Source: a bacterium
GTDB lineage: Bacteria > UBA10199 > 2-02-FULL-50-16 > JAJFLM01
DNA length: 64,000 nt
Direction: 5' to 3'
Assembly (NCBI GenBank): GCA_965216315.1
Contig: CBDCFN010000016.1
Coordinates: forward strand, 544,001 to 608,000
Below, piece by piece: positions 3,624 through 57,982 of this stretch; the stretch's first letter is position 1; every line of letters starts with the position of its first letter. Below the pieces are notes generated by a model that was given only the letters and a program-made list of their open reading frames with translations, was not told the DNA's origin and did no database searches. The position numbers were made by a program, and so were the translations under genes.

Positions 3624-6600
3624 AAACGCTAAAATAAGTACATTGCGGATGATGAAAGACGATGGCCGACACGGAGGCCTCTGGATCCATCATGAAGCCT
3701 TCCGTCAACTCGACACCGATTTCCTCAGGAGTCAGTAGCTCAAAGAGGATCTTTTGATCCGCTAATTCGGGACAGGCCGGATAGCCGAAAGAGTAGCGTT
3801 TGCCCTGGTACTTCGCCTGAAAACGTTGCTGCATCGTCATGTCCTTCGGATCGGCAAAACCCCACGCGCCGCGTATCTTGGCATGGAGCCATTCCGCGTA
3901 TCCTTCCGCGGATTCCAGGGCGAGAGCTTGGAGCGCGTGTGATTTGAGATAGTCTCCGGAAGCCTTCCAGCTTTCGGCCTGTTCCCGGATACCGAAGGCG
4001 GCGGTCGTGACAAAAAGGCAGATATTGTCGCTTATTTTTTCTTGTCGTGGTGCCGTGTAATCACTGAGGCAGAGTCCGTTTTCTTTGGCCTGGCGCGGAA
4101 ATTGAAATGACGCTACTTGTAGGCCCTCTTGGTCAAACAAGTTGAGCTCATTCCCCTCACTCGCAGCGCGGAAAAATTGATAAATAGCTTTTGGCTTAAA
4201 AAGGGCCTTCGCACAATCACGCTTGAGTTCTTCGACGATCTCAATAATCTCCAGGGCCTTTCGGCTTTCGTCAGTGTCTTTGAGTGCTGTCGTGCCTTCC
4301 TGTTGCCAGCGGTCGATGAGAGAACCCTTAATGCCTAAGTGGCGTCCATAAAGCATGCGCGGATTGATATAAGCCCAGATCTCTGCGATGGGCGTCCATT
4401 CCAGTAAGTGGCGCTTATAATCAGGAGGTGCAGGAATTTCGCTGCATAATTCAATCTGTGAGGAGCGCGTCGTGCTAATTTTTGTTTCGGTCTTTTTAAT
4501 CGGCGTAAAATCGATCTGAGCGACCGCCTGTGCCTCTTTAAGTTCTGATTTGAGAATATCAAAGGCCCGTTTGTCGCGGATACGCTTGGCGAGGTCGAGA
4601 CCATTCATGGCATCTTGTGCATAGACCGCGACACTTCCATAGGCCTTGGCAATCCGCGTATCGGTAAACTTGCGCGATAAAGCGGCCCCTCCGACCATCA
4701 GTGGTAATTCGATGCCGGCATTCTTGAGGTCTTCAGCAGTCACTTCCATTTGTTGAGCGGATTTAACGAGTAGGCCCGAGAGGCCGATGATATCCGGCTT
4801 GTGTTCCTTGACGGCCTTGATGATCTGCTCCGGAGGGATCTTGATGCCGAGGTTGATGACCTTAAAAGAATTATTGCTCAAAATAATATCAACTAAATTC
4901 TTGCCGATATCATGCACATCACCCTTTACCGTCGCGAGGAGGATAGTGCCTTGGGCGGCGGAATCGGCTTTTTCCATATGGGGTTCTAAATGAGCGACCG
5001 CGGCTTTCATGGCCTCCGCACTCTGCAGAACTTCGGCGACAATCATTTCATTCTTGTTGAAGAGTTGACCGACCTTATCCATGCCGGCCATGAGAGGCCC
5101 GTTAATAATCTCGAGCGGTTTCATTGTTTGCAGGGCTTCATCCAGATCTGCATAGAGCCCGTCCTTACTGCCCTCGAGTATGTAATTGCCGAGGCGTTTA
5201 TCCAGTGGCAGTTTGGCTATTTCCTCTTTGGGGACGATTTTTTTTGAACGAAAATAATTTGCGAAGGTGGCGATAGGATCATCTCCCCGGTTGTGCATGA
5301 GGTCATCGCACAATTGAATTTCCTCGGCAGGGATTGCCGCATAACGTTGCAGTAGTTCCGTATTGACGATAGCGAGGTCGAGACCCGCCTCAACACAGCG
5401 GTGCAGAAATACCGAATTAAGCACTTCGCGACCGGCTGTGGGAAGCCCGAAAGACACGTTGGAGATCCCAAGTACGGTTTTGCATTCGGGAAAATTTTCT
5501 TTGATTGAACGAACTCCTTCAATCGTTTCAATAGCTGATCCCTTGTATTGTTCGTCGCCGGTCCCGCAAGGGAAGACAAGAGGATCAAAATAAATATCGG
5601 CGGGCTTTACACCGTACTTATTGACTAAGAGGTTATAAGACCGTTCGGCAATCTCAAGCTTGCGCGCTCGTGTGACACCCATTCCTTGCTCGGGATCTTC
5701 ATCAATGGTTCCCACTACGAGGGCCGCACCAAATTGATTGGCGATCGGGACGACTTTTTCAAAGCGTTCTTCGCCATCTTCTAGATTAATAGAATTGATA
5801 ATCGCCTTGCCTTGAGAATAAGTGAGCGCCTTCGCAATAACCGCTTCATCCGTTGAATCAATCATAAGGGGGACACGGACCTTTTGAATGACCTGATCCA
5901 GGAATCGTTCCATGTCGAGCATTTCATCGCGGTCTGGGTTAGCGAGACAGACGTCAATGATTCCGGCTCCGCCCTTAAATTGACGGCGCGCGATCTCGCT
6001 GGCCTCTTCAAATTTTTCTTCGACGATCAGGCGCTTAAACTTACGACTGCCGATGACATTGGTCCGTTCGCCGACGAGGATGGGCCGCTTTTCATCTGAA
6101 ACCTCGAGATAGTCGATACCGGATAGGAAGGAGCCCTTAACCACTGGAATGGTGCGAGGCGGACAGGAGTCGGCGACCTGTCGTAAGGTTCGAATATATT
6201 CAGGCGTCGTGCCACAACAACCTCCGATCACATTGATCCACCCTGATTTGGCAAAATGTTCCAGATGCTGGCCCAACATTTCAGCGGATTCAAGGTAGTT
6301 GCCGTCGACATCGGGCAGACCGGCGTTGGGAACACAGGCGATCGGTACTTGTGCTAATTGGGCCATCGAGCGGATATGGTCGGTCATAAACTCAGGACCG
6401 GTAGCGCAGTTGAGCCCCAAGTATAAGAGGGGTCGATGATCTAGTGAGACGACCAGGGATTCGACGGACTGGCCGGCGAGCATCGTGCCCATCGGTTCAA
6501 TGGTTCCGGAGACGGCAACGGGGATGGACTCATGCCCCTCATTGAAAAGACGGTCGATGGCCAGCAAGCCCGCCTTGATGTTGCGCGTATCCTGCGCCGT

Positions 6601-7098
6601 TTCAAGTAGGAAATAGTCACAGCCGCCTTCGTAAAGGGCCTTGGCTTGGACGTAAAAATGTTCGATCAGCTCATCAAAAGTGACGCCACCGGTGACGCTA
6701 ATGGCCTTAGTGGTGGGACCGATGGAGCCCGCGACCCAGCGCGGGCGGTCCGCTGTGCTGAACTTGTCGGCGGCCTGCCGCGCCAAACGGACGGCCTCCT
6801 TATTTATTGCTTCGGTCTTGGTCTCAAGACCATATTCCGCGAGGACCAAGGGTGTGGCGCCGAAGGTGTCTGTCTCAACGATATCCGCTCCGGCTTCGAG
6901 ATAACTTTCGTGAACGCCTTGAATGACGTCCGGTCGCGTCAGGACGAGATTTTCATTGCAGCCTTCCAGGGCCTCGCCCCCAAAATCAGCTGCCGTGAGG
7001 GCGCATGTCTGCAGGGCCGTCCCCATCGCCCCATCGAGGAGGAGGATGCGCTCGTTGATGGCCTTTTTGAGGGCCTCTGTGCGGTTGCGACGATCCAT
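3622..7098 (-). CDS. metH: Cobalamin-dependent methionine synthase
   Basis: LDGAMGT, GLNCATGP, GGCCGT (homocysteine/Zn), pterin domain GERTN, B12 motif GDVHDIGKN, reactivation domain RYSFGYPACP. Confidence 0.97.
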   Translation of the reverse strand: MDRRNRTEALKKAINERILLLDGAMGTALQTCALTAADFGGEALEGCNENLVLTRPDVIQGVHESYLEAGADIVETDTFGATPLVLAEYGLETKTEAINKEAVRLARQAADKFSTADRPRWVAGSIGPTTKAISVTGGVTFDELIEHFYVQAKALYEGGCDYFLLETAQDTRNIKAGLLAIDRLFNEGHESIPVAVSGTIEPMGTMLAGQSVESLVVSLDHRPLLYLGLNCATGPEFMTDHIRSMAQLAQVPIACVPNAGLPDVDGNYLESAEMLGQHLEHFAKSGWINVIGGCCGTTPEYIRTLRQVADSCPPRTIPVVKGSFLSGIDYLEVSDEKRPILVGERTNVIGSRKFKRLIVEEKFEEASEIARRQFKGGAGIIDVCLANPDRDEMLDMERFLDQVIQKVRVPLMIDSTDEAVIAKALTYSQGKAIINSINLEDGEERFEKVVPIANQFGAALVVGTIDEDPEQGMGVTRARKLEIAERSYNLLVNKYGVKPADIYFDPLVFPCGTGDEQYKGSAIETIEGVRSIKENFPECKTVLGISNVSFGLPTAGREVLNSVFLHRCVEAGLDLAIVNTELLQRYAAIPAEEIQLCDDLMHNRGDDPIATFANYFRSKKIVPKEEIAKLPLDKRLGNYILEGSKDGLYADLDEALQTMKPLEIINGPLMAGMDKVGQLFNKNEMIVAEVLQSAEAMKAAVAHLEPHMEKADSAAQGTILLATVKGDVHDIGKNLVDIILSNNSFKVINLGIKIPPEQIIKAVKEHKPDIIGLSGLLVKSAQQMEVTAEDLKNAGIELPLMVGGAALSRKFTDTRIAKAYGSVAVYAQDAMNGLDLAKRIRDKRAFDILKSELKEAQAVAQIDFTPIKKTETKISTTRSSQIELCSEIPAPPDYKRHLLEWTPIAEIWAYINPRMLYGRHLGIKGSLIDRWQQEGTTALKDTDESRKALEIIEIVEELKRDCAKALFKPKAIYQFFRAASEGNELNLFDQEGLQVASFQFPRQAKENGLCLSDYTAPRQEKISDNICLFVTTAAFGIREQAESWKASGDYLKSHALQALALESAEGYAEWLHAKIRGAWGFADPKDMTMQQRFQAKYQGKRYSFGYPACPELADQKILFELLTPEEIGVELTEGFMMDPEASVSAIVFHHPQCTYFSV

Positions 7099-7158
7099 TT
7101 TACTCTACAAATTCTCCGCTACGCTGCGAATTTGTTCCGCGGCTAAAGCGCAGCTTCA

Positions 7159-7229
7159 GCCTTAGCGGTTGATACGGCCCCGCATCAAAACAAAGATGCG
7201 GCGTGGCGGCAACGGTTAAATCCGGGCCC
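7159..7229 (-). ncRNA. Candidate SAM-II riboswitch (long-loop variant) in the metH leader
   Basis: Minus strand reads GGCC-CG-GAUUUAAC...UGCGG-GGCC-GUAUCAA-CCGC-UAAGG, fitting the SAM-II layout: P1 GGCC/GGCC, pseudoknot GCGG/CCGC and UUUA/UAAG. Lies upstream of a methionine gene. Confidence 0.7.
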
Positions 7230-7403
7230 CTATATTAAGGAGTCATGCTGAGCGAGGGTGTGCCCCGCAGGATGCGACTTGAGTCCAAAAAAACAGCAAA
7301 AAAAGTGAATGTGGATAACTTGTCGAAATGTATGATTTCTATAGATTATTTTGTCCACATTCTGACGCAGCGCGCTATTGAAAGGAATTGTAAACGAATC
7401 CTC

Positions 7404-7429
7404 GAAACTTTAGGCCATAACTGTCGAAA
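7404..7429 (+). promoter_or_regulatory. ECF-sigma-like promoter variant GAAAC-N16-CGAAA
   Basis: Same spacing as the other copies; 11 nt before ATG 7441. Confidence 0.35.
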
Positions 7430-7440
7430 CTTGCGGAGCT

Positions 7441-10400
7441 ATGGTGCCTATAGCCTCATTTTCGAGCTCGCTTGCGTTGGGTTTTCCGGCGGCGACCGCC
7501 ACGTTTCAAGCTCCCATGCTCTTGGCATCGGGTCGTACGAACGATCCGATGACGGCGGTGATGGCGGGTGCCGGCTCGTTTACCAACTTGACCGAGCAGG
7601 GAGACGGGCAGGATCAACTGTCGTTGGGCAGTGATGCGAGCTCCGCCTTATTGGCCCAAGGAACGGGTCTGCGCGAAGAATCTCCCGTCCTTTCACTCCT
7701 GGCCACCGGTGCGAACACCGACCCTGAAATGTCTAGTGATGTGGATGGACCGTCGCTATCGGTTCAAAATACCGCTGCCATGACGGCGGCACCGTCACGC
7801 TTTATGGGGCGGGCGAGTCAATTTCTATCGACGATGGTTTTTATTGGGGCCATGTTCTGTGGTGGCTGCGGAAATGAGTCCACTACGGATAATCGTCCCG
7901 CTGTGACACGGGCGATGCCTGAAGGGATTAATCAGGCCGAGACCCTGCGTGAATCCGCTTTTATTTTTGGTCTCACGGATATGCCTTCCGGCGAACTTAA
8001 TGATCCCGCCACCGTTGATATAGCGATCTTAACCGGCGCGCCTTATCAGGCCTTTAAGGCCGACTTGATACGCGTTGATCCGCGCCTGGCTGCACAGTGG
8101 ACGGAAGTGGAAGCACTCGTCCAGCACCTAACTACTGCAGCGAATGTTCGCGACGGGAATCCTAATGTGGTGACACGCGCTGAAATGGCAACACGTCACG
8201 ATCCCGCGACCAACTCCACGGAATTTACCAATGCGGTTCGTACGCTACGCCTCGCACATAATATTGTTGCCGAATATGGACGGCGTGTTGAAGGCCGTGG
8301 AGCGGCGAGTGTTTCAAGACCGTCTGATCAATCGAGTGATCACGATTCACCTTTAGGCACACTACTCGGAATTTTAGCGCTATTGGCCCTGGCAGGGGCG
8401 GGATTCTATATCGCCCGTCAGCGTAAGACGATGAAGGGGCAGCAGCAAACAATCAATGACGGGAAGCAACGGCTCAGAGAGGCTGAGACCTTAATCAAGG
8501 ACTTAAGTCGGAAACAGGTTTTATTAGGCCTCGATCAAGGTGAGCAGCGGTACGAAGATATTGCCGCTCGTCTGCAAGCGGCAAAAGAGAAAAACGCCAG
8601 TATCAAGAAGTTGCAGGCGGATCTCACCGAAGTCGAACGTGATAATGTTGAACGTGCAGCCGCACTGCGCGAGTCTAATCGGAAACGCTATGAAGAGATG
8701 CGGGAAGAAGCGACTCGGGCGGCGGAAGAAGAGCGCGTTTATAAATCGCTGAAGCGCTATCGGGACTCGCTGCGCGAGCGGTTAGAGAAATTGCAGGCGG
8801 ACGAAGACGAAGATCCGGCGGTCACCGTTGAAAAACTCCGTGAGAAGATAGAAGAATTTAATAGTGCCATCAAGGAACGCGACCGCCTCCAAGCTGAATT
8901 GGATGGGCTCAAAAGCGACAATGAGGGCCTCGATCAGCAGAAAGTAAATCTCCAGGCGGAGATCGACCGCTTGCAACCGATCATCTTTGAGCTGCGCCGA
9001 GAGGTCGGGACTCTAGCCGGTCAGGCACGAGACCTAAGGGCAAAGAAGGAACAACAAGAAAGCGCGCGGGATGATTTTAACGAGAGTATTATCACGTTGA
9101 AATCCGAGCTTCATGCGTTGGGGCTCACCATTAACAGCCTTGGTACCGAGAAGGCCGAGCTTGAGCGGGAGAAGACGTCGCTGATTGCAAAACGAGACGC
9201 GGTTACTGCTGCGATCGCGCAATTAAGGGGAAGCATTGCGGAGCTGGAAGCGGCCTTGCCTCAGTTGGCAGCTGAACGCGGACGCCTGGATGAACAGAAA
9301 AGTCAATTAGAGCCTCAAGTTGAGGAACAGACCCGTCTGCGCAATGCGGCTCAGGAGGCTTACGATACGACGTTGAACACCTTGAATGGCCTCAAAGACG
9401 ACGAGCGCGATTTCACCACTAGAAAGACTGAATTGGAAGACGAGATTGGCGAGAAAGAAGGGTCAATCGAGAGTCTCAAGTCAACAATCGGTACGCTGGA
9501 GGCGCGGAAAAATACCTTAAATACGGAACTGACCGAGACCAAGGAAAAACATGATAAATTAGCTGAGGAAATACCCGGTATTGAACGCGCTACTCTAGAG
9601 GCTCAGGCGGCTCTCGCGGATCTGATCACGAGCCATGAAGATAAAGTAAGGATACGTGGTGAAGAAGAGGCAAAGGCCCAGGCCAAGTCGGACGCGGTTG
9701 CCGAGCAAGACAGAATTATTGGAGAACTTCGGGCCCAGATTGAACAAGATGATCTGAAGTATAACGCCCGTTTGGCGACGGCGCAGAGCGAGCGGGCACG
9801 GCGTGGCGCACTCCGACAGGAAATTGCCCGCATTGAAGCCGAGATTCGTGCTTATGAAATCGAAATGGATGGGGTCAGTGCGATTGACGCCCAACTCCAA
9901 GAGGCGACCGAGCGGAGTCAATATCTAGAAACGGCTCAGTTTGTAGATGATGAAGAAGCCAATGCGGCGAAGATTGAAATGAGTGAGTTGGCTGATCGTC
10001 TCGGAAGGTTGCAGCGGCGCCGTGAAGAAATGGATCTTGTCGCGCAGCGTGTTAGCCTCCGTGCCGAACTGGAACCTTTCGCGGCTGCGGGCGATCACGT
10101 TTCGGGTCAGGCTGTAGAGCTGCAGTTGAAGATTGATGCCCTGACGGAACGCATTTCCGCCGGCGAAGCCGGCCTGACGGCCCAGCGCGACGAGCTGAGC
10201 GCCATGCGGGGAACGCTGCGTAGCAGCAGAGACGAATTAGAGAGTGAACTTGAACGGCTGACAGAGACCGTCCGTCAGCTCAGCGGTGAAGTTGATGGCT
10301 TGAAGCAACGGCTTCGCGAAAAAAATGAACAATTGGAAGGGCTTCAGAGCGAGGATAAGGGCTTAAATGCGGATATCCGGAGTCGTGAGACGGATATCAG

Positions 10401-13400
10401 TCTGGCGGAGGGCGAGATACAGAGGCTCAAGGGAGTTCTCGAGCAGACCCAAGAGCGCAAGGAGGCTGCCGAAGCCGAGGCGCGTGCCAAGTTTGAAGAA
10501 CAGCAGCAGCTTAACGAGCAGATTGCAGCCGCACGGCAACGCGCCCAAGAAATTCATGAAGATATACTTCAAAAGGGTATCCAAAAGGCGGAGGCGGAAG
10601 CGGCTCGGGATGATTTGCAGCAACGCTATGCACAAGTGGAAAGTCAAGTCCTCGCCGTTTGGGAGCAGGTCACCGAAGTTTATGCAAACTACATGGAACA
10701 TCGCCGCTTCATTGAAGCGGTCTTGAGGCTTATTGCAAGAGTTGCGCGTCCGATCCAAGATGATGAGGCGACCCAGCCGGAACTCTACATAGAGGCCTTG
10801 GATGAACGCCTTCAGGAGGTTCAGCAGGTCATTGATCAGGTTGGTACGGCTGAGCATCGTCATGAGGATATGGTACGCGCCTCTGAGCAACTAGGCTCGA
10901 TGATCCAGCGAGTTGAGCAACAAGTCGTGACGATGGAGAGTGGAATTGGCTTGCTCACGGAAAAAGATCTGGAGCTCCAGAATCGCATTGCCGAACTTAA
11001 GGGTGAGATAGAGGAGTTTAAAGCGCATCGTGCTGAGGTCACGGAGCAGCGAGCCGAGCGCGATCGTTTGACTGCGGAATATCCCAATGAGCAGTATCAA
11101 AATGTTGATGAAGAGTTGACGGACTTGAGAAATCGCGTACCGGAATTACAAGGCAAGGCCAATCAGCTGGATATCCTCAAAGGTCAAATTTCTGGCATTG
11201 CCGAACAGTATGGTGATCTCGACAACGCTATTGCGCAGGAAGAAGCGCTGAAGCAAGAGGCGCAAGATGAATTAGATGAGCGGAATAGAAGGCTGGCGGA
11301 GCTTGATAAGAGCAAGGGAGAGTTAGCCGAGCAATCTGCTGCGGTCCAAGCGAGTATTGATGAGGCGGGGCAAGAGATAAAAGACAGGGAGGCCGAACTT
11401 GCTGAGGCCGAAGCCGAGCAGGAACGCGTCCGTGCCCAAATTACAGAACGGGAAAAAGCGCGTGACGAAGCGAACGAGGCGCTTGATGTCGTCCGCGCCG
11501 AGGCCGAGCGGGTTCAAGGACAGATTGAATATCTTAAAGGTGAGCTAGAAAAATTTCAGCAGAATCAACCGGCGTTGGTTGATCAGCATGCGCAGCTCCA
11601 TAAGGCCTTCCAAGTAATTACTTATATGACGCGACGGATGGGAGATATTCAATCGCAGCTAGAGGCCCTTCAGCCCATGTATCCGGATCTTGTCGATCCT
11701 ATCCTCGCGAGAATCAGCGAGCAAAGTGCTACTGATGTCGTGGATCAGGTGACGGCCTTTGAACTCTTGCTCCTGATTAATGCCTTGAATGCCGACATTG
11801 CCCGACTTTCAGTGACGACGGTGCGCGCCACGGGTGCGCAGATGATGCGCGGTGAGGTTGATGATGTCTATCAGCCTCCGATCGTTAAGGTCGCAGCAAC
11901 GCCCGATATGGGTGAGCTGGCGCAGACGGCGACTCAGGGAATGGGCCGCAAATACGCCGAAGATACGGTGACGCACGCCCATGATGATAACAGAAATCTT
12001 TATATACTCGACGTTGACGGGATGGGCGGGCACGAGAAGGGTGATGTCGCGGCCGAAATTGCGACCGAGCAATATACGCTGACGGCGTCCATTCACGGTG
12101 ATCCCATTGCCGCCTTGCGGGCTGCGAACACTTCGATGCGACAGACTTTTGCTCACAAAGGAGACAAAGCACCCGGGGCCTGCGCGGTTTCGGTTCGGAT
12201 TCGTAAACCGGAGCAGGCGGGGGGTGCCCATCATGCCGATTTTAACTGGCTCGGCGATACCCGCGCAATCGTGTTGCGGCGCAACGCTGCTGGCAAATGG
12301 CAGTGGCTCTATCGCACTGTCGATCAGAATATGGGCTTGGTTCATATGCAGGCGGGTGCCTTGAAGCCCGGGGTCGATTTTGAAGTCGGCGGCAAAGGAC
12401 TTGAGATGGCTCTGCTGACGGTTCCGAATAACAATGTCGTGATCAGTGCTTTGGGTCAAAAAGACGAACCAGACATTAAATATACCAAGGATGGTCACGT
12501 GCCGGCCGAGAACGATTGGGGGCGGAGAGAAGCAACTGAGTTTGCGGGCGGTGTTCCCTTGCAGCGTGGTGACGTAGTCCTGATGGGATCGGATGGCCTG
12601 TTTGGCAACTTTGGTAACATTGAAATGATCGCCAACTTAATTCAATATTGTGAGACCGCGGAAGAAATCATCCAAGTACTGACACGTGAGGCTCATGAGA
12701 GAATGGCGATCTTGCGGGAAGCAAAACGACATCTTAAAAACGGGGGCCGTTGGCCGTTTGAGCATCATGGGCGCTCGCTTTTCATTGATAGCAGCGGAAA
12801 AGTTTATGAAGAGGCCAATAGTACAAAGCCCTTTGATATTTTCAATATCGATAACTTCAGCGCGAGTGTCTATCTGCACAACCCGACCACGCCGCGGGCC
12901 CCGCACCTCGGTGCTGATGACGGTGCCTCCCCGGCCTTTAATGACGCCGTCACGGACCGCATTGCCCTGCCGACGCTCGAGCACAAGGGCAATAACCGTT
13001 ATGGTCTTACGATCCATAGTGGGACTCAAATAGTGGAGTTCAGACGCCGGACGGCGGATGAACAAGGAACGGGTTTCATTCAGCAAGGGAATAGGCTGAC
13101 GATCTATATTGATTCACCTAGAATTTCAAGGCAGGGCGAAGCGCGCATGATACGCGACGCCGACGGTGTCTACCAAATGCAGGATTTAGGCAAGGCGAAT
13201 GGCGTCCGCGTTTTTGAAGATGGGCAGCCGGTGCGCATTACGTCACATCAAAATTATCCGGTACAAGAGGGCGGTGTTTTCTTTGTCGGAGATTATCGCT
13301 TTGATATCGACAGGCTTCCGGAAGCTGTAGATGACGGCCCGATGGTAGAGATTGCGGTTGAAGAGCTGGAGCCCGTTGACGGTGTCGATCAGGTCGTCGG

Positions 13401-14775
13401 TGGGAGGCGCCCCCGGCTCCCGGCAGACCCCTCGGAACGTCTTACCCCGCAGCTAACGGGACCCATTTATGCCCGTTCACAGAAGTTAGCGCGGGAGATC
13501 GCTGCAACCCCAGAGAATCAGCGTAAAAATAATCCTCGTTGGGTCGGTATGTTGGCCGAGCGGGAAATTCTTGCCGAGATAGATCCACAAGTGACCTTTG
13601 ATCGCGGCCAGCAAGAAGGACGCAATTTTATTCGCATTCGTATTGGCGATGATGAATATGCCTTCTGGCCGGAGGACGCGGTGCAGATTACGCAAGCTTT
13701 GGAAAGTGCCGCATCCATCTTGACCGGTGCACGGCAGGAGCGGGCGCGCGAGATTCTGGCGGCGTTCAATCGTTATATTAAAGCCATGATGACTTCGGCC
13801 CGGCCGATATTAACAGACGAGCGTCGGGCTCAGCTACAACGGGCCGGCCTCACTCAAGCGGATCTCGTCTTAATTGAAGAGGCGGTCGGACAAAACATAG
13901 CAGGTCAATATGAGATCAAAGAGTTGATTGGCATGGGTCAACAAAGCCTGATCTTTCGGGCCTATGATCACGAAGAAGGTCAAGATGTTGTCGTGAGGCA
14001 GGCAGCTTTTTCTTATTCTAAGCTCGACAATCGCTACGCTCTCGCGGAGCATGAAAAGCGCCGGAAGCAGCTTGGTGAGTCTTTTCGAGCCCAGATCAAG
14101 GACCCGACTGGCAAGATGCCGGCGGCTATTAAAGCTATCGAAGCGCCGGCTATTATTCCAGCCGCACGACAATCAGAGCCTTTGTCAAAAGAACTCTATG
14201 TTATTGAAGAATATGTTAATGGTTCGACGATCAATGAGGTTATCCAGAGTCCCTTCTGGATTCGCATGCCGCTGGAGGAACGGGAAAGATGGCTGAAAGC
14301 TTGGATGGGTCAGTTTATCGAGTTTTGGGGTGCCTATCAACAGGCGGGTTATCATTATAGTGATATCAATCCCGACAACCTCATGGTTGATGACGAGACG
14401 AGCGGACTTCGCGTCGTCGATGCGGGGAGCCTCCGTCCTATTCAAAATATCTTCATCCAGGGGGGACCTCTTGCCTATACGCCGGGGTATACGACGCCGA
14501 AATTGCTTGAAATGATTAAGGGCCACAGCAGACGCAGTATGCAGACGAGCCCGAACTATCTCTATCCCATGCTCGGCAAGCTCATGCACCACATCTTGAC
14601 TGGAGAGGCCCCACAGCAAGCCGGTGTCATGCCGGATATGCCGGCGTTGAAAAACTCCGGCAAGGCCAGCTCGGGTGCGATTACCGTCATTGACCGTTTC
14701 TTGGCGATGGATGGAGCGACGGATATGGGGACCTATCGGAATGCGCAGGCGGCCTTTAAGCAGTGGCGCCCTTAA
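7441..14775 (+). CDS. Giant membrane-anchored coiled-coil protein with PP2C phosphatase, FHA-like and Ser/Thr kinase-like domains
   Basis: TM LLGILALLALAGAGFYIA (~8350-8416); ~1100 aa of E/Q/L/R heptads; PP2C motifs ED, DGMGGH, GDTR, SDGL, DN; FHA-like ISR...QDLGKANGV; kinase YEIKELIGMG, YSDINPDN, VVDAG, TPGY. Confidence 0.85.
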   Translation: MVPIASFSSSLALGFPAATATFQAPMLLASGRTNDPMTAVMAGAGSFTNLTEQGDGQDQLSLGSDASSALLAQGTGLREESPVLSLLATGANTDPEMSSDVDGPSLSVQNTAAMTAAPSRFMGRASQFLSTMVFIGAMFCGGCGNESTTDNRPAVTRAMPEGINQAETLRESAFIFGLTDMPSGELNDPATVDIAILTGAPYQAFKADLIRVDPRLAAQWTEVEALVQHLTTAANVRDGNPNVVTRAEMATRHDPATNSTEFTNAVRTLRLAHNIVAEYGRRVEGRGAASVSRPSDQSSDHDSPLGTLLGILALLALAGAGFYIARQRKTMKGQQQTINDGKQRLREAETLIKDLSRKQVLLGLDQGEQRYEDIAARLQAAKEKNASIKKLQADLTEVERDNVERAAALRESNRKRYEEMREEATRAAEEERVYKSLKRYRDSLRERLEKLQADEDEDPAVTVEKLREKIEEFNSAIKERDRLQAELDGLKSDNEGLDQQKVNLQAEIDRLQPIIFELRREVGTLAGQARDLRAKKEQQESARDDFNESIITLKSELHALGLTINSLGTEKAELEREKTSLIAKRDAVTAAIAQLRGSIAELEAALPQLAAERGRLDEQKSQLEPQVEEQTRLRNAAQEAYDTTLNTLNGLKDDERDFTTRKTELEDEIGEKEGSIESLKSTIGTLEARKNTLNTELTETKEKHDKLAEEIPGIERATLEAQAALADLITSHEDKVRIRGEEEAKAQAKSDAVAEQDRIIGELRAQIEQDDLKYNARLATAQSERARRGALRQEIARIEAEIRAYEIEMDGVSAIDAQLQEATERSQYLETAQFVDDEEANAAKIEMSELADRLGRLQRRREEMDLVAQRVSLRAELEPFAAAGDHVSGQAVELQLKIDALTERISAGEAGLTAQRDELSAMRGTLRSSRDELESELERLTETVRQLSGEVDGLKQRLREKNEQLEGLQSEDKGLNADIRSRETDISLAEGEIQRLKGVLEQTQERKEAAEAEARAKFEEQQQLNEQIAAARQRAQEIHEDILQKGIQKAEAEAARDDLQQRYAQVESQVLAVWEQVTEVYANYMEHRRFIEAVLRLIARVARPIQDDEATQPELYIEALDERLQEVQQVIDQVGTAEHRHEDMVRASEQLGSMIQRVEQQVVTMESGIGLLTEKDLELQNRIAELKGEIEEFKAHRAEVTEQRAERDRLTAEYPNEQYQNVDEELTDLRNRVPELQGKANQLDILKGQISGIAEQYGDLDNAIAQEEALKQEAQDELDERNRRLAELDKSKGELAEQSAAVQASIDEAGQEIKDREAELAEAEAEQERVRAQITEREKARDEANEALDVVRAEAERVQGQIEYLKGELEKFQQNQPALVDQHAQLHKAFQVITYMTRRMGDIQSQLEALQPMYPDLVDPILARISEQSATDVVDQVTAFELLLLINALNADIARLSVTTVRATGAQMMRGEVDDVYQPPIVKVAATPDMGELAQTATQGMGRKYAEDTVTHAHDDNRNLYILDVDGMGGHEKGDVAAEIATEQYTLTASIHGDPIAALRAANTSMRQTFAHKGDKAPGACAVSVRIRKPEQAGGAHHADFNWLGDTRAIVLRRNAAGKWQWLYRTVDQNMGLVHMQAGALKPGVDFEVGGKGLEMALLTVPNNNVVISALGQKDEPDIKYTKDGHVPAENDWGRREATEFAGGVPLQRGDVVLMGSDGLFGNFGNIEMIANLIQYCETAEEIIQVLTREAHERMAILREAKRHLKNGGRWPFEHHGRSLFIDSSGKVYEEANSTKPFDIFNIDNFSASVYLHNPTTPRAPHLGADDGASPAFNDAVTDRIALPTLEHKGNNRYGLTIHSGTQIVEFRRRTADEQGTGFIQQGNRLTIYIDSPRISRQGEARMIRDADGVYQMQDLGKANGVRVFEDGQPVRITSHQNYPVQEGGVFFVGDYRFDIDRLPEAVDDGPMVEIAVEELEPVDGVDQVVGGRRPRLPADPSERLTPQLTGPIYARSQKLAREIAATPENQRKNNPRWVGMLAEREILAEIDPQVTFDRGQQEGRNFIRIRIGDDEYAFWPEDAVQITQALESAASILTGARQERAREILAAFNRYIKAMMTSARPILTDERRAQLQRAGLTQADLVLIEEAVGQNIAGQYEIKELIGMGQQSLIFRAYDHEEGQDVVVRQAAFSYSKLDNRYALAEHEKRRKQLGESFRAQIKDPTGKMPAAIKAIEAPAIIPAARQSEPLSKELYVIEEYVNGSTINEVIQSPFWIRMPLEERERWLKAWMGQFIEFWGAYQQAGYHYSDINPDNLMVDDETSGLRVVDAGSLRPIQNIFIQGGPLAYTPGYTTPKLLEMIKGHSRRSMQTSPNYLYPMLGKLMHHILTGEAPQQAGVMPDMPALKNSGKASSGAITVIDRFLAMDGATDMGTYRNAQAAFKQWRP

Positions 14776-15557
14776 CCGATCGTAATTTCCTTGATCATTC
14801 CATCTCGATGAAAACGAACTGCTGTTTGCGAATGGCTCCTGCGTCGCGAATGCGTCAAGAGCCGCATAACTTTGGCGAGCGAGAGTTTTCCATCCATATC
14901 CAGACAAACGGTGACACCCGCATGAAATTTATGACCTAAGATTTCGGTTTTGTTGGCGAGGACGATCGAGCGCAGTGAACCGTTATGATGAAACTCAAGG
15001 CAGGAGTTGGCAGCGGCGATAAGTACCTGCTTATTGAAACGGATTTCCATGGGTTCATTAATATGTACCCAAACCAGCTGACCTTGATTGGAGAAATGGA
15101 CGACGGTTCCGGCCGGGAAGCGGTAGCCGGCTATTTGCATGGCTTCGGCCAGAGTCGTTTCTTTGAGGATGCCATTGCGGTAAAACGAAACCAGACGATG
15201 TGCGATGAGTTTTTTGACTTGAGCGCAATTGGTTTTCAGTCGGGTATCGCTCGCAAGTGAGACCCAATCCAGCTGAGCGTCGGGAAAGAAGTAGGCGATA
15301 CTGGTGCCGGGGAAAGTATTCGCACCGATGCGAGTCATGTCCCCAAGCCAGATGGAGGTCAGCCGCCCCCGCTCCGTGTAGAAAATTTCCGAACCTTGAG
15401 GCAGCTGCAGACCATGGACATTCATGTCGGCATGCAGCCGTGTGCTAAAGGTTCGGGGGCTATGCACGAGCAAAGCCCTGTCCTTCGGGTCCGTTTCAGT
15501 GACCTCTAAGTCGATTTCGTTCGCCGCCCTCATGGCGAGATTCCCCTCCAAATTCAT
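14772..15557 (-). CDS. Beta-hairpin repeat protein (MORN-variant/YwqK-like)
   Basis: Repeated ~30-aa units of the form G..F..G..V.F..NG.L....L. Confidence 0.6.
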   Translation of the reverse strand: MNLEGNLAMRAANEIDLEVTETDPKDRALLVHSPRTFSTRLHADMNVHGLQLPQGSEIFYTERGRLTSIWLGDMTRIGANTFPGTSIAYFFPDAQLDWVSLASDTRLKTNCAQVKKLIAHRLVSFYRNGILKETTLAEAMQIAGYRFPAGTVVHFSNQGQLVWVHINEPMEIRFNKQVLIAAANSCLEFHHNGSLRSIVLANKTEILGHKFHAGVTVCLDMDGKLSLAKVMRLLTHSRRRSHSQTAVRFHRDGMIKEITIG

Positions 15558-15723: not shown

Positions 15724-17379
15724 ATGGTGTATACAACACTCAGCCAAACGACTCTTCTTATGGGTCACACCCTCCCAATGCTCGCGTCTGCCGATCTGTC
15801 CGCAACGCAGCCGGCGCCAGTGCTTGCCGCACCGTCACAGTCATCACTCGCATCGACGTTGTTTCAGCGCTGCATCGCGCGCCCCCTCGTGGCGACGCAT
15901 ATGTTACTCAGTCCGTTGAGTTTCGCTGGCTGTGAAGACCGGGAAATTAAACCCGTTGTGTCGGCTCGGCCTGACAGTGTTCAATCCATTCAAAGCCCTT
16001 TAGAAGTCGATTCGAACGTTGTTCCGAAAGAATTGGCGGTTATCGGTGTCTTGGTCTTGCTAGGTACGGGCTTGATACTATTGAGAAAAAATTCTCAGCT
16101 GAGATCGGAGCTGAAGGCCAAAAATAGCGCGTTGCATGAGAAAAGCGAGGAATTAGAATCCATCCAGATTTCATACGCTAAGATGCGACGGCTATTCGCG
16201 AAGGTGAAGGATCGCGATAAGATGCTGGGTCTCTATCAATCCAAGTTGGATGTCGATGCTATCTCGGCTGAACTTCGAGATCTTGAGCGAGAGATTGCCG
16301 GCCTGCAGGAGTTAAAGGAAGAACGCTATCGCTTGAAAACCGAATTTGATGAGCTCACTTCGTTAAAGTCCGTGATGGAGTTTGATTGTGAGCGCTTTGG
16401 AACAGCGATTGAGAAAGTCGAGGACGAACTGGACGAGCTGGATGCAGCATTAAAGGTTGCCGAAAGCCGATTAAAACAACGAAAGGCCGAGTATAAATCT
16501 AAACAGCAAGAGCTAGAGAATGTTCGACAACGCAGAATCACGCCTCTTCGCGTAGCACTAGCTCCGGCACCGGAAAATCCGGAGCGGCCGGTTAGGAGAG
16601 AGGTTCGATATGATCTGCCGTTGGCACAGCGGAAACGGCAGGCAATTCCTCTTCTGTCAGTCCCCGTCCCGAAAGGGCGACGCGTGAACGTGCGGTTGCA
16701 TGATGGTTTTGCCGAATATGTTCGCAATAACGGGGCCGACGTTGAGATGAGTCGTGGTGTCGGAGTCAATGGTTTTTTTAACCTTGTTCCTAAAATAGGG
16801 TATCGATTTCTCCGTGTAAGCTCCTTTCACTCGCATGATTGGAAAGCATTAGATCTTGTCTCGCTTGATGTGATTTCGGAGCCTATCAATCCGGAGGCTC
16901 ATGGTGTTTGTGATGGTGACTTTATCCTCATCAAGGACAAGGAGGGGGGACTCGTTGGTGTCGGTACTGTCAGTAGCGTCGGTGTAAGTCGCTTTAAGGC
17001 ACTCGAAGGAGCAGCTGGATCGTCGTCAGCAAAAATTTCATCGTCGGCTCTGAGCTCACAAAAACCACCGCAAAGCCAAAAGCCGGTATCACCGCAAACA
17101 ACTTTCGATATACTACGCCCTCCTGGAAAAACTGCCGAGCGGTTTGGAGCAACGGTCGAGCGGCTTGATGACGGGAAATATGAATTCCGCATCCGAGTCT
17201 ATGAAGGGGAGATTTTGATCTGGGGAGATCGGCGGTATCAGGGTCCCGCTATTCGTAAGCTTGCCGTCAGTCGTGCAACTGAAATCAAGATACAACCGTC
17301 TCGTGGCAGGCGGCTATCATTTACGCTGCGGCCGCCGAAAACCGGGCAGCAAGCCAGCATTGAGAAACACCCGCGGTAG
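15724..17379 (+). CDS. Membrane-anchored coiled-coil protein, N-terminal paralogue of the 2444-aa protein
   Basis: Low-complexity leader, FAGC, TM, then coiled coil with DKMLGLYQSKLDVDAISAEL resembling KQVLLGLDQGEQRYEDIAARL. Confidence 0.7.
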   Translation: MVYTTLSQTTLLMGHTLPMLASADLSATQPAPVLAAPSQSSLASTLFQRCIARPLVATHMLLSPLSFAGCEDREIKPVVSARPDSVQSIQSPLEVDSNVVPKELAVIGVLVLLGTGLILLRKNSQLRSELKAKNSALHEKSEELESIQISYAKMRRLFAKVKDRDKMLGLYQSKLDVDAISAELRDLEREIAGLQELKEERYRLKTEFDELTSLKSVMEFDCERFGTAIEKVEDELDELDAALKVAESRLKQRKAEYKSKQQELENVRQRRITPLRVALAPAPENPERPVRREVRYDLPLAQRKRQAIPLLSVPVPKGRRVNVRLHDGFAEYVRNNGADVEMSRGVGVNGFFNLVPKIGYRFLRVSSFHSHDWKALDLVSLDVISEPINPEAHGVCDGDFILIKDKEGGLVGVGTVSSVGVSRFKALEGAAGSSSAKISSSALSSQKPPQSQKPVSPQTTFDILRPPGKTAERFGATVERLDDGKYEFRIRVYEGEILIWGDRRYQGPAIRKLAVSRATEIKIQPSRGRRLSFTLRPPKTGQQASIEKHPR

Positions 17380-48696: not shown

Positions 48697-49866
48697 TCAA
48701 TCAGCGGTAAAGTAATTCTGACGACCGCGCGAGTAAAGCACTTCAGAGATCATATATTTCTGTATCTCGGTGGTTCCTTCAATAATAGAAAGGATTTTTG
48801 AATCGTTGACTAGCTTGGCGATTGGATACTCGAGGGAAATACCGGCTCCCCCCATAATTTGAGCTGCTTTTAGAGTGACTTCTTCGGCTGTTGATGTTGC
48901 ATAGGCTTTAGCCAGTGATGCCTCGTAGCGATAATCCTGGCCGAGAGAGGCTTTCCATGCCGCCCGCCAAGCTGCAAGTCTTGATGCCTCTGTCGCCATT
49001 TGCATTTGCGCAATGTATTGGCGAATGACCGGATGATCCCCAATGGCTTTTCCAGCCGAGTAACGAGTTCTTGAATAATCAATGCATTCATCAATGGCAC
49101 GTTGTTGTATGCCCGTAGCTATGGCAGCCGTTCCGGTCCTGCCACGCGAGAGAGAACGCATGGCTACCTGATAGCCGTTGCCCTCTTTGTCTAGAAGGTT
49201 TTCACGCGGGATGAAGACATCTTCAAAAGTGAGACCGGATGTATCGGCGGCTTTAAGGCCAAGCTTTTTTTCAGGGCGCGCTTTGATGACTCCATCCAGG
49301 TTGCCGGGAACGATAAAGGCTGATAGCTCAGAAATTTGTTGAGACCCCTTAGGGTAGGCGAAAACAATATAGATGCCGGCACGATTTGCATTGGATATCC
49401 ACGCTTTCTGACCATTGATGACAAAGCCATCATTCTTTGTTTCGTAATGGGTTTTTAAGCCGCCAAGGTCGGAGCCGGTTTGGGGCTCGGTTAAGGCAAA
49501 CGAAATCAGCATTCGCTCTTCACATAATAAGGTAAGCCACTTCTTTTTTTGTTCTGCCGTGCCGAAATAGTCAATAGGTGCGGAAGCCAGATTATTAGTC
49601 AGTATGGCGAGTGCTATACCTGCACAAGCATGTCCCAGGATTTCTGCAATAAGGACGGACTCAGCAGGTCCCATGTTACCTCCACCATACTCATCTGAAA
49701 TTCCCAAGTTAACGATACCTAACTCTTGAGCTTTATCGATAATATCTTCAGGAAAAGTATGGCTTTCATCATATTCTGCTGCTTTGGGTAGGATTTCGTT
49801 TGAGGCAAAATCTTTTGCCATATCCACGATCAAGCGCTGGTCTTCAGTCAAAGAAAAATCAATCAT
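48697..49866 (-). CDS. Acyl-CoA dehydrogenase family protein
   Basis: FALTEPQTGSD, INGQKAWISN, KLG, GGAG, IIEGTTEIQ; AGGAG 7 nt before ATG 49866. Confidence 0.9.
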   Translation of the reverse strand: MIDFSLTEDQRLIVDMAKDFASNEILPKAAEYDESHTFPEDIIDKAQELGIVNLGISDEYGGGNMGPAESVLIAEILGHACAGIALAILTNNLASAPIDYFGTAEQKKKWLTLLCEERMLISFALTEPQTGSDLGGLKTHYETKNDGFVINGQKAWISNANRAGIYIVFAYPKGSQQISELSAFIVPGNLDGVIKARPEKKLGLKAADTSGLTFEDVFIPRENLLDKEGNGYQVAMRSLSRGRTGTAAIATGIQQRAIDECIDYSRTRYSAGKAIGDHPVIRQYIAQMQMATEASRLAAWRAAWKASLGQDYRYEASLAKAYATSTAEEVTLKAAQIMGGAGISLEYPIAKLVNDSKILSIIEGTTEIQKYMISEVLYSRGRQNYFTAD

Positions 49867-52663
49867 AAACATGCTCCTTTTCGCCATCACTGCTGTGTTG
49901 TTTTAGGCGGCGCAGGGACATTCCCGGTGCAAGTCTCGGGGTGGCTCCCAGTCTAATAATTTCCTGCTCGATCAGAGATGTGATGAACTCATGCTTGGGT
50001 TTTCCATTCGGTGAATCGATATTTCTTGGCGATATAGGGCTCCCAAATATGATTTTAACTTTGGACGGACGGGGAATGTACTGGTCGCGATTGAGAACAT
50101 TAAAGCTGCCTTTAATATAGATAGGAATAATCGGAGAACCGGTTGCTTCGGCCAGAATGCCAACGCCATTCTTGAAACGATTTAGTTTTCCGTCCATTGA
50201 CGGTGTTCCTTCAGGATGAATGAATAAGATATTTCCTGAATCCAGGACTTTTTTACCTGCCTGGAGTGCGGGGAGAAAATTCCCTTCGCGATCAATTGGA
50301 ATCATCTGGGCCAACCAGGCAAACAGGCCACGGTCAAAGCGCTGCAGATGCTCTTTTTTTCCGATAACATAAAAAAACTTTCGAAGTTGTGGAGCCAGCT
50401 TGCACAGAACAAAAAGGGGGTCCATATAGCTTTCATGGTTTGAGGCTAAGATGAAAGGTGGTTTCGCCGGAAGGTGCTCTATACCATCGCATTCCAGTCG
50501 AAACATTATGCGACTGATAAGTGACAGAGTTGAAATGAACCGCTGACGAAAATGCCCGGTAGAATTGTTATCAAGATGGACCCGCTGCTTTATTTCGCGA
50601 TCGATTACGGGAGAGATGGATTGGTCTAGTACCTCGTTCCAACATGTGGAATTGTTATTATCCATGCCTCTCCTGTAGTCCCCTTTTGATAGATCTATTT
50701 CGTTTTGAGAGCAGAATTCATTGATAGCGATGATGCAATCCCGAATCGAACGCATTGAGTAGACAATATCTTTAGATACCGGCTGTCCGATGATTTCTTC
50801 GATATTCACCGCTAATTCCGCCATCGACAATGAGTCAAAACCGAGGTCCATAAATAGATGTGACTCCAGCTCAAATTGGATGGGTCCCCCTTTTACGCGA
50901 GCCACAGCTTCCTTAAGGAGTTTGCCTGCACCCGACGAGAGCAGCTTTTCGCCGGATATATTAATTTCGACATTCGTTTTCTGACCGTTTCGATCGATGA
51001 CATTCTGTCTCAGCTCAAATTTCTTGATTTTTCGAGTCGTGGTCCGGGGTAGGGACTGATACTGAATTTCATATCGGTTGATTCGGCACCAGCCGGGCAG
51101 CTGTTCAGATCTGTCGATAATTGTGTTCTTGATAATCATGTCAACGTCGTTCAAGCAGTTCGTCTTGAAGTAGCTCATATTGGGGACAATGATGGCGTAT
51201 ATTTCTTCCGCTTTTTCGCGAGTACTTTTCGGGACTCCGAAGACGGCGATCTCTTCAATGCAGTCGGATTCGAGATAAAATTCTTCTATTTCGTCGGGGA
51301 AAACATTTTTTCCGGAAGGAAGTACGATGACGTCTTTAGATCTTCCGCAGATACTGAGATAGTTCTCTTTATCTAGCGACCCAATATCTCCTGTCAGAAA
51401 ATAGCCATCGCTCGTAAAAGTCGAGCCGTTATTATTTAGTTGATAGTAGCCATTAAAAACAGGCGGACCCTTAACGGCAATTTCACCCGCGCCATTATCA
51501 TCGGGTGAAACGATTTTAACGGATATGCCGTTAAGTCTGCGTCCGACTGTGCCGGGACGAGCATGATGAGGAAAATTACAGAAAATCACCGGTGCTGTTT
51601 CAGTCAGGCCGTAGCCCTCGAATATGGGGAGTCCTAAAGTGTTGAAAGTACGGATCACGTCTTCGTCGAGCGCGGCAGCACCCGAAATGATACGACGAAT
51701 ATTCCCGCCCAGCGCATCATGGATTTTTTTAAAGAGGCATTTTTTTATTCCGTAGAGATGAGCACCGTTGTCGCTGATATATCGAGACGATTTCAGGGTA
51801 TGAAATATGAGCTGGGCCGAGTTTGGAGCAAAATTAATCTGCTCGACTATGCCTCTGTAGAGCTGATTGAGGATAGCTGGGACAAATATAAGCGTTGTAA
51901 GTCGGTTCTTTTGAATGCATTCTAATAGGTCGGCTTTATTCAGGCTGCTGAGGATGAAGATATCGGCACCAACTTCCAGCGAATTCAGTAGGCAAGCGGA
52001 AAACGAGTAGGCATGATTCAGAGGGAGTAGCATCAGTGTTTTATCATCTTCAGATAATCTCATATCGTGGGCAATCGAAAGCTGAGAGAGAAAATTAGTA
52101 TGCTTTAATAATACTCCCTTTGGGTTGGATGTCGTGCCCGAAGTATAAATGAGTGAAGCGCTGTTTTTAGGGGAGGATCGGATGACTTTGAAATCAGAGT
52201 CATGTCTTTCCTCGATCCAGGAAAAAGGAATGCATTTACGCAAGTAATTGATGTCGGCGTCGAGAACGACGTATTTGCTGACTTTTTCGTCAAGCTCAGG
52301 AGAGCGGATGTTGGGTAAGATATTCCGCTCAGTGAATAAAAGCCTGGCTTTAGAATTGCCGATGATATTATTGATTTCGTGTGCTGATAAGTGGGGATCA
52401 ATTGTCACAGCGCAGGCGCCGACATTGATAATGCCTATATATATTGCGATCCATTCAATTCGATTGGTGGACATGAGAGCGACATTTTCGCCCCTTCTGA
52501 CATTATGATTCGCTAAGAAACGGCCTACTTTAAGGCTCAATTCATATACTTCCCGAAAAGAACTCTCGGTGTGCTGAGCCGCGCCCTGATGGTGAATAGA
52601 GGATAAATTATCCACTGCTTTGGCTTGGAAAAAATCGGTGAGAGATTGGTAACTGGCTGCCAT
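49859..52663 (-). CDS. Fusion of long-chain acyl-AMP/CoA ligase, ACP and PlsC-type acyltransferase (Aas-like)
   Basis: YTSGTTSNPKG, GYGLTE, TGD; ACP LGFDSL; acyltransferase NHESYMD, HPEG. Confidence 0.88.
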   Translation of the reverse strand: MAASYQSLTDFFQAKAVDNLSSIHHQGAAQHTESSFREVYELSLKVGRFLANHNVRRGENVALMSTNRIEWIAIYIGIINVGACAVTIDPHLSAHEINNIIGNSKARLLFTERNILPNIRSPELDEKVSKYVVLDADINYLRKCIPFSWIEERHDSDFKVIRSSPKNSASLIYTSGTTSNPKGVLLKHTNFLSQLSIAHDMRLSEDDKTLMLLPLNHAYSFSACLLNSLEVGADIFILSSLNKADLLECIQKNRLTTLIFVPAILNQLYRGIVEQINFAPNSAQLIFHTLKSSRYISDNGAHLYGIKKCLFKKIHDALGGNIRRIISGAAALDEDVIRTFNTLGLPIFEGYGLTETAPVIFCNFPHHARPGTVGRRLNGISVKIVSPDDNGAGEIAVKGPPVFNGYYQLNNNGSTFTSDGYFLTGDIGSLDKENYLSICGRSKDVIVLPSGKNVFPDEIEEFYLESDCIEEIAVFGVPKSTREKAEEIYAIIVPNMSYFKTNCLNDVDMIIKNTIIDRSEQLPGWCRINRYEIQYQSLPRTTTRKIKKFELRQNVIDRNGQKTNVEINISGEKLLSSGAGKLLKEAVARVKGGPIQFELESHLFMDLGFDSLSMAELAVNIEEIIGQPVSKDIVYSMRSIRDCIIAINEFCSQNEIDLSKGDYRRGMDNNNSTCWNEVLDQSISPVIDREIKQRVHLDNNSTGHFRQRFISTLSLISRIMFRLECDGIEHLPAKPPFILASNHESYMDPLFVLCKLAPQLRKFFYVIGKKEHLQRFDRGLFAWLAQMIPIDREGNFLPALQAGKKVLDSGNILFIHPEGTPSMDGKLNRFKNGVGILAEATGSPIIPIYIKGSFNVLNRDQYIPRPSKVKIIFGSPISPRNIDSPNGKPKHEFITSLIEQEIIRLGATPRLAPGMSLRRLKQHSSDGEKEHVYD

Positions 52664-52764
52664 TTAACCTACAGGTGATTCAATTTCAGCAAAAATAATA
52701 TCTATGCTCATGATAACAGAAGCTCATAATTGCATGTTAGATTATTTGTATGCACCGGATTAAA

Positions 52765-52786
52765 ACTGTTTACTCGTGTAAACAGT
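52765..52786. promoter_or_regulatory. Perfect inverted repeat (operator/UAS candidate) between divergent lipid operons
   Basis: ACTGTTTAC-TCGT-GTAAACAGT; half-site ACTGTTTAC again at 52923. Confidence 0.55.
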
Positions 52787-52943
52787 GTCATTATCTCTAC
52801 ATAGAGTGGGTACATGATGACCTCAAGACTGAGATGTAAATTGTATCCAACCGAATTGCGTTAACAGTTTTTGAGCAAACAATATTTTATTAACCAGCTG
52901 AAAAATAATGAAGATGCCTTTAACTGTTTACATGAATTGCGCT

Positions 52944-57973: not shown

Positions 57974-57982
57974 GAGGTCTCA

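Follow-up and report, generated by a model that had tools for sequence, protein, structure and literature searches.

A 2444-residue membrane-anchored protein of a UBA10199 bacterium that joins a long segmented coiled coil to PP2C phosphatase, FHA-like and kinase-like domains

What is the role of a bacterial protein that joins a phosphatase, an FHA-like domain and a kinase-like domain in one chain at the end of a very long coiled coil? Such a protein, of 2444 amino acids (aa), is encoded by a single gene in a 64,000-nucleotide stretch of DNA (hereafter the window; positions 544,001 to 608,000 of contig CBDCFN010000016.1, assembly GCA_965216315.1) from a bacterium of the GTDB lineage UBA10199. 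Ser/Thr signalling in bacteria usually relies on separate kinase, PP2C and FHA proteins; here one chain carries all three. An initial annotation, made from the letters alone, had called a transmembrane (TM) segment, a coil and PP2C, FHA-like and kinase domains in this order, and these calls were borne out by Pfam, custom profiles, AlphaFold2 (AF2) models and Foldseek searches. Its proposal of a self-contained phospho-signalling or pseudokinase scaffold is likewise supported. Our preferred reading, to which we give a probability of roughly 50%, is that the protein serves as a phospho-Ser/Thr signalling scaffold tethered to the membrane, with dephosphorylation as its catalytic output.

The gene is a genuine, lineage-restricted gene for an inner-membrane protein, found, as far as seen, in one bacterial family. 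The source genome has 2.96 Mb in 16 contigs with a completeness estimate of 98%, and the region was covered by contigs from four public runs (two samples of one study). A 16.3-kb contig of the second sample is gap-free across positions 7300-14571, and contigs of the first sample span 7300-12814 and 12870-14819, together with short bridging pieces. Since the contigs of the two samples bridge every domain junction, an assembly chimera, which the initial annotation had named as a possible refutation, is unlikely. The second-sample contig differs from the window at 25 positions, 20 of them synonymous and 5 non-synonymous, the pattern that purifying selection on a translated gene would leave. All these differences are confined to 12693-14293, that is, to the last 1.6 kb of the gene, with none in the first 5.4 kb; this clustering suggests strain recombination or a mixed-strain contig. 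The copy in the public protein collection starts one codon later (GTG at 7444) and has 2443 aa. Residues 1-305 align from Met1 with a 2483-aa orthologue (P0040) in a genome of the same family (G001; 32% identity, E 1e-26), which supports the start codon given here. A promoter and terminator scan of 7000-7600 gave nothing better than shuffled sequence, and PF24161 (CCDC39), precomputed for the database copy of the protein, was not recovered in the genome scan.

The phosphatase domain contains all metal-binding PP2C motifs, namely AED (D1508), DGMGGH (D1526), GDTR (D1606), GSDG (D1718) and DN (D1804), and the metal-binding Asp motifs had thus been correctly described as intact. Curated profile hidden Markov models (HMMs) missed the domain at threshold (Pfam PF00481, 18.6 bits against 20.3; NCBIfam Stp1, 46 bits against a cut-off of 230), and a single-sequence phmmer search of this part against the PDB gave no match. 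A profile of 17 PP2C relatives, taken from an exhaustive phmmer search, matched tPphA in the PDB with E 2.4e-33, and all 37 PDB sequences that it matched were named PP2C/PPM or SpoIIE-type phosphatases. The predicted local distance difference test (pLDDT) score of the AF2 model exceeded 90 across most of aa ~1480-1815, and Foldseek matched the model to Streptococcus agalactiae STP, tPphA, MspP, PstP and Stp1 at template-modelling scores (TM-scores) of 0.72-0.80. The domain, dubbed PP2C-long, is a divergent long form: its flap region contains insertions, and others precede the last strand. Judged by its modelled fold and intact metal motifs, it is a catalytically competent-looking phosphatase.

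The C-terminal domain scored 33.9 bits with Pfam Pkinase when searched alone (threshold 31.7) and 26.7 bits within the whole protein. Its AF2 model had pLDDT > 90 across most of aa ~2140-2444, and the best structural matches were the kinase domains of PknB, PknG, PpkA and YabT (for PknB, TM-score 0.78-0.80 and E 8e-13). The residue states agree with the initial annotation: the beta3 Lys is replaced (VVVRQ, R2186), and the catalytic Asp is kept (YSDINPDN, with D2308 and N2313). In a 26-row alignment of the kinase-like family, the catalytic Asp and Asn are each present in 25 rows and the Mg-binding Asp in all 26, and at beta3 22 rows have Lys, 3 have Arg (the 2444-aa protein included) and 1 has Gln. 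The DFG motif does read DAG (D2327), as stated earlier, but this is not a defect of the protein: the family norm is DAG, with A at DFG+1 in 22 of the 26 rows and G at DFG+2 in 21. In the strain variant the beta3 codon is AGA, still Arg; this synonymous change from AGG indicates that Arg2186 is real and maintained. The G-loop is degenerate (GMGQQS), and the activation segment carries a conserved TTP. In canonical kinases, Lys-to-Arg at beta3 is a classic kinase-dead change. By the usual definition, under which at least one of the VAIK Lys, HRD Asp and DFG Asp is missing, the domain would be a pseudokinase candidate, through the VAIK Lys only, with a loss of activity inferred from the residues. 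Its nearest relatives are standalone proteins of ~310 aa with 30-36% identity, which fall below the Pfam threshold. A quick maximum-likelihood tree split the family from ordinary Hanks kinases with a Shimodaira-Hasegawa-like approximate likelihood ratio test (SH-aLRT) value of 99, and placed both giants (the 2444-aa protein and its orthologue) on long branches inside the subclade of standalone proteins, with weak support (83).

Between phosphatase and kinase lies a degenerate FHA domain, for which Pfam scored 14.4 bits against 20.7. A custom HMM from 35 FHA domains of relatives scored 23 bits on this region, and hhalign gave 96.8%; among the 10,170 six-frame open reading frames (ORFs) of the genome the match had E 1.1e-5, the weakest of ten FHA-bearing ORFs. 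In addition, phmmer matched P0139, which is a true double-FHA protein, to aa ~1887-1927 with E 1.9e-5 across a library of 1.8 billion proteins. The only match of a single-sequence phmmer search of this part against the PDB was Hsp70, which was judged to be chance. Of the signature residues, Ser-Arg and Asn-Gly are kept; another residue stands in place of the His (SRQGEA), and the alignment of the GR arginine is insecure (RRR or GNR). The AF2 model is beta-rich and poor (pLDDT 30-58). Homology to FHA is therefore supported despite the Pfam score, as the custom HMM and hhalign indicate, but the conserved His has been lost and the fold is poorly modelled. Of the three domains, only the kinase, searched alone, passes Pfam; PP2C and FHA are sub-threshold but supported by profiles of their relatives. 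The linker that follows the FHA domain had no family match in Pfam or NCBIfam and was modelled with pLDDT 30-76.

The coiled coil accounts for ~46% of the protein. Its heptad a/d contrast (aa ~330-1450) was 0.506, compared with 0.252 +/- 0.012 in 20 shuffles and 0.258 in the globular C-terminal part, in agreement with the ~1100-aa heptad region called at the outset. With 14 prolines and a longest proline-free run of 224 aa, the coil appears to be segmented and not one continuous rod. At the usual coiled-coil rise of about 0.15 nm per residue, a length of ~160 nm would require all segments to be collinear; of the rod of roughly 150 nm once proposed, the long heptad-rich coil stands, and its continuity is not supported. 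No tandem DNA repeats were found in this region. An SMC/Rad50 model reached 97.9 bits (cut-off 567), with matches at coiled-coil positions alone and none to the ATPase heads that flank the coil in that family; this does not indicate membership. The spacer is 1139 and 1148 aa long in the two orthologues, that is, within 1%.

The N-terminal part is probably more receptor-like than a simple anchor, with two predicted TM helices around an extracytoplasmic loop. The strong helix TM2 confirms the membrane segment noticed before, but the initial annotation had taken it for a single TM anchor and missed the weaker helix at aa 128-144 (TM1), at whose aligned position the orthologue has a Kyte-Doolittle value of 1.88. 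The Arg/Lys-rich flanks before TM1 and after TM2 predict that both ends of the protein are inside and the loop outside. For the loop, neither Pfam nor the ESM Atlas gave a match. A cleaved lipoprotein signal at aa 122-144 was considered and rejected in view of the poor lipobox and of the orthologue's alignment, which begins at Met1. NF058571, the model of the GVDTG C-terminal sorting domain, weakly matched TM2 and its basic tail (8347-8424, aa 303-328) with E 0.051 and 13.9 bits, where the cut-off is 29; this probably reflects no more than a TM helix.

The order metH, giant gene, o261, o374 and SNF transporter is common to the source genome (G000) and G001, and the orthologue shares the N-terminal domain, both hydrophobic helices, the coil length and the kinase-like domain. 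Its kinase has Lys at beta3 (VIVKQ), and between coil and kinase it carries at least three FHA domains and no PP2C. It also shows a weak match to the crescentin rod (E 3.5e-4, far below the cut-off). Among 93 genomes of the class, full-length matches to the N-terminal 340 aa (tail through TM2) came from G000 and G001 alone; two more genomes gave marginal partial matches. When aa 1450-2444 and aa 1-340 were used as queries in word-indexed searches for homologues of 1344-4277 aa, only the protein itself was returned.

We also took a census of architectures in the best 150 of 259 library matches (149 relatives and the target), in which rarer combinations could be missed. PP2C-long was carried by 67 of these 150, 28 of the 67 having an FHA domain as well (21 of 40 among those of at least 1000 aa), and the kinase-like family by 47, of which only the 2444-aa protein and its orthologue are giants. 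PP2C-long and the kinase-like domain occurred together in the 2444-aa protein only. PP2C-long was present in 15 of 41 related genomes (G000 counted), often in open frames of up to 17,560 aa, and the nearest copies of the PP2C-FHA cassette lie in giant ORFs of the same class. The domain, often beside FHA, was seen at L012-L020, at G022:C8:44765-45781, in G027 (9 matches) and in G020 (4 matches), in frames of 2074 to 17,560 aa. PP2C-long with FHA looks like a standard cassette of giant proteins of this class, which curated libraries miss at threshold. In the simplest history, such a cassette would have entered a pre-existing scaffold built from anchor, coil, FHA and kinase.

The kinase-like family shows other arrangements outside the giants. 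Our scan of the genome collection found its standalone form in four loci of Planctomycetota metagenome-assembled genomes (two Zavarzinella, one Isosphaeraceae and one Gemmatales), in each directly downstream of a vWA gene (4/4; Table 1), the vWA protein having an N-terminal TIR domain in two. Because two of the loci are 94% identical, these represent three independent cases. None of the four contained PP2C or FHA, and the two-gene module matched no named PADLOC defence system. Five proteins (P0064, P0080, P0090, P0100 and P0112) have the kinase-like domain behind a canonical Pkinase domain, and three (P0063, P0072 and P0096) have it before WD40 propellers. For the 2444-aa protein itself, PADLOC gave only weak kinase matches, to PD-T4-6 (best E 1.4e-9) and mad6, with no TerY-P match and none for the PP2C and FHA parts. 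No vWA gene lies near the gene in the window, and the genome scan turned up just one vWA-like ORF, weakly matched and ~380 kb distant; together with the weak PADLOC kinase matches, this leaves a defence role unsupported here.

The gene adjoins metH in conserved chromosomal synteny, with a group of conserved, unnamed genes on its other side. Pfam and NCBIfam gave no match for the neighbours o261, o374, o335 and o357, and coiled-coil noise only for o551. Two genes downstream, a 551-aa coiled-coil protein of no known family (15724-17379, + strand) is encoded, which is absent from the syntenic locus of G001. Possible partners in the genome include 17 other Pkinase matches over the cut-off, 2 small PP2Cs and 9 other FHA proteins; many of its Hanks kinases are in ORFs of 1200-1700 aa. 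Two further long open frames of the same genome encode 6239 and 5726 aa (G000:C16:673129-691845 and C16:1500562-1517739). Elsewhere in the window, a lipid or non-ribosomal peptide synthetase-like cluster occupies 49859-60639 (an acyl-AMP ligase-ACP-acyltransferase of 934 aa, a 1650-aa A-T-C-A protein, a thioester reductase and two acyl-CoA dehydrogenases), and a phosphopantetheinyl transferase lies at 63189-63932.

Table 1. Coordinates of the 2444-aa gene and its parts in the window, and of the Planctomycetota genes in their own loci
Feature	Residues (aa)	Coordinates	Strand	Remarks
Whole gene	1-2444	7441..14775	+	Single open frame, 2444 aa plus stop
N-terminal tail	1-125	7441..7815	+	Ala/Ser/Gly/Thr-rich; predicted cytoplasmic
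TM1 (probable)	128-144	7822..7872	+	Kyte-Doolittle 1.67 over 17 aa; two Arg before
Extracytoplasmic loop (predicted)	145-304 (~160)	7873..8352	+	Conserved with orthologue
TM2	305-327	8353..8421	+	Kyte-Doolittle 2.1-2.4; followed by RQRKTMK, cytoplasmic side
Coiled-coil region	~330-1450 (~1120)	8428..11790	+	Heptad-rich, segmented
Long-form PP2C/PPM domain	1475-1838	11863..12954	+	D1508, D1526, D1606, D1718, D1804 in conserved motifs
Degenerate FHA domain	~1860-1958	13018..13314	+	S1896-R1897 and N1920-G1921 kept; conserved His replaced
Linker	1959-2136	13315..13848	+	First ~90 aa disordered in model, then small beta-meander and helices, moderate confidence
Kinase-like domain	2137-2444	13849..14772	+	Unnamed Hanks-fold subfamily
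beta3 codon AGG	Arg2186	13996..13998	+	Lys in 22/26 relatives
Standalone kinase-like genes		L027:2460-3575, L028:5956-6930, L029:~5968-6888, L030:~5815-6918		
Upstream vWA genes		L027:545-2557, L028:3786-5912, L029:4308-5906, L030:4037-5833		

Several known systems resemble parts of this protein. The mycobacterial PknB, PstP and FhaA-FhaB bring the same three parts to the membrane, but as separate proteins without a long coil; PknB and PstP were among the best structural matches of the kinase and PP2C domains. A kinase fold joined to a long coil is found in the eukaryotic ROCK and DMPK/MRCK kinases, and ROCK1/2 and DMPK were among our fold matches (ranks 24-45). In the 2444-aa protein the order is reversed, with the kinase C-terminal to the coil, the chain is membrane-anchored and PP2C is present. 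Bacterial cytoskeletal proteins such as Scy, FilP and crescentin likewise contain long heptad rods, to which our coil has no sequence relation beyond composition. The TerY-P triad is a vWA-kinase-PP2C module. Plant KAPP has a KI-FHA and a PP2C domain in one protein and docks on phosphorylated kinases. According to the accessible part of a preprint (10.64898/2026.01.23.701218), Deinococcus radiodurans DRA0334 combines FHA with PP2C in a vWA, kinase, FHA and PP2C operon. In KAPP and DRA0334 the FHA domain precedes PP2C and the chain has no kinase domain or coil, whereas the FHA domain of the 2444-aa protein is degenerate.

The pseudokinase domain of MviN, phosphorylated by another kinase, recruits the FHA domain of FhaA, as stated in the accessible text of PMC12599244; it lacks most catalytic motifs, whereas in the 2444-aa protein the beta3 Lys alone is changed. 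Krupa and Srinivasan 2005 (PMC1262709), as far as its accessible portion goes, reported PP2C-kinase fusions in Pseudomonas and FHA-kinase fusions in cyanobacteria. In the former, PP2C is N-terminal to the kinase in one chain, as here, but the fusions of that portion are pairwise and made of canonical domains, and none is described there with all three domains, with a 1100-aa coil or with this kinase subfamily. Neighbourhoods of kinase, PP2C and standalone vWA genes are covered in the accessible part of Kaur et al. 2020 (PMC7159879); the standalone relatives of our kinase-like domain are paired with vWA (with or without TIR), whereas the 2444-aa gene has no vWA partner in the window. Full-text literature searches, whose coverage excluded subscription journals and bioRxiv supplements, found no description of this kinase subfamily or of a single chain that carries all three domains on a long coil. 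PP2C, FHA or coiled coils are not mentioned in the accessible parts of two preprints on giant genes, one of them being 10.1101/2023.11.21.568195. In terms of novelty, the component domains are of known kinds, and the combination, as judged from the sequences searched, was found only here.

In our preferred reading, the cytoplasmic N-terminal tail would be followed by TM1, the outside loop of ~160 aa, TM2 and then about 2100 cytoplasmic residues. The coil may pair two chains and hold the cassette away from the membrane, and the kinase-like domain would act mainly as a docking or regulatory pseudokinase. The conserved TTP would perhaps be phosphorylated, feebly by the domain acting on its own segment or by any of the genome's 17 further Hanks kinases, and the FHA domain would read this mark in cis or across the dimer. 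PP2C would be the real output and strip phosphate from the cassette and from recruited substrates; that the outside loop sets the balance is a guess. The tandem layout of the five relatives behind a canonical kinase fits a regulatory role. Several points weigh against this picture. All catalytic residues but the beta3 Lys are kept, Arg at this position is no proof of inactivity, and purifying selection on the kinase-like domain fits an active enzyme equally well. Phosphopeptide binding by the FHA domain appears doubtful in view of the lost His, the insecure GR arginine and the poor model. As TM1 is weak, the two-TM topology is a prediction, and dimerisation and the geometry of the coil are presumed. 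The scaffold is present in two genomes only, so that arguments from conservation rest on n = 2. In addition, the identity of the coil between the orthologues (25.6%) is no higher than that of shuffled controls (23-28%); composition and length alone are kept, and sequence conservation of the coil was rejected.

The main rival, possible although clearly the less probable, is a bifunctional receptor whose kinase would be active despite the Arg: the loop would sense a cue, the coil would relay it, and the balance of kinase and phosphatase would shift, much as in other push-pull signalling proteins. The retained D2308, N2313, Mg-binding D2327 and TTP activation segment favor it, as do the purifying selection on the gene, the sensor-like layout of two helices with an outside loop, the Lys of the orthologue and the Pseudomonas fusions mentioned above. 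On the other hand, the change at beta3 is the one that classically inactivates canonical kinases, 22 of 26 family members keep the Lys, the G-loop is degenerate, and we know of no relay through a segmented coiled coil of 1100 aa. That the protein is mainly structural, with the coil as spacer, tether, filament or membrane ruler and a phospho-cassette that merely regulates assembly or marks the tip, would agree with the large share of heptad-rich coil, with a spacer kept in length while its sequence has decayed to the level of composition, and with the weak crescentin match of the orthologue. We consider it unlikely: the length conservation comes from two proteins, 14 prolines break the rod, no filament-forming family was matched at threshold, and no link to division or shape genes was seen in the window. 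A long shot is a membrane-rooted molecular ruler, in which the length-conserved, jointed coil of ~1140 aa (up to ~160 nm when stretched) might set the distance of a phospho-switch in a small cell, for example to the nucleoid or the opposite membrane, and sister lineages might have flipped the tip between a 'writer' (Lys-kinase with several FHA domains) and an 'eraser' (PP2C with Arg-pseudokinase).

A role in defence or conflict, comparable to that of the vWA-kinase(-PP2C) modules, is suggested by the vWA genes (with TIR in two loci) ahead of the standalone relatives and by the weak PADLOC matches to the kinase defence gene PD-T4-6. It is nevertheless very improbable for this gene, near which there is no vWA, TIR or effector gene, whose PP2C and FHA parts have no PADLOC match and whose housekeeping synteny is stable. 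Least probable of all are an assembly artefact and an effector secreted or injected into host or prey. The long disordered N-terminus could hide a signal, and the accessible text of one of the giant-gene preprints (10.1101/2023.11.21.568195) ties giant proteins of related bacteria to predation. However, the two TM helices, with their positive-inside flanks, predict a protein that resides in the membrane, the contigs of two samples bridge the domain junctions, and the orthologue shares the scaffold. For the host- or prey-directed effector entertained in the initial annotation, nothing was found in support; the gene keeps its place beside metH, and no secretion-related feature was seen.

Since the scaffold family is tiny, its general impact is moderate. 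At the same time, its coil is among the longer ones seen in bacterial signalling proteins, and our analysis defined two domain subfamilies, PP2C-long and the ~310-aa kinase-like family, that curated libraries miss or barely catch. The 2444-aa protein and its orthologue also form a natural experiment on the change of output of a signalling scaffold. If the ruler with a flipped tip were true, the pair would represent a natural reprogramming of one scaffold from kinase to phosphatase output.

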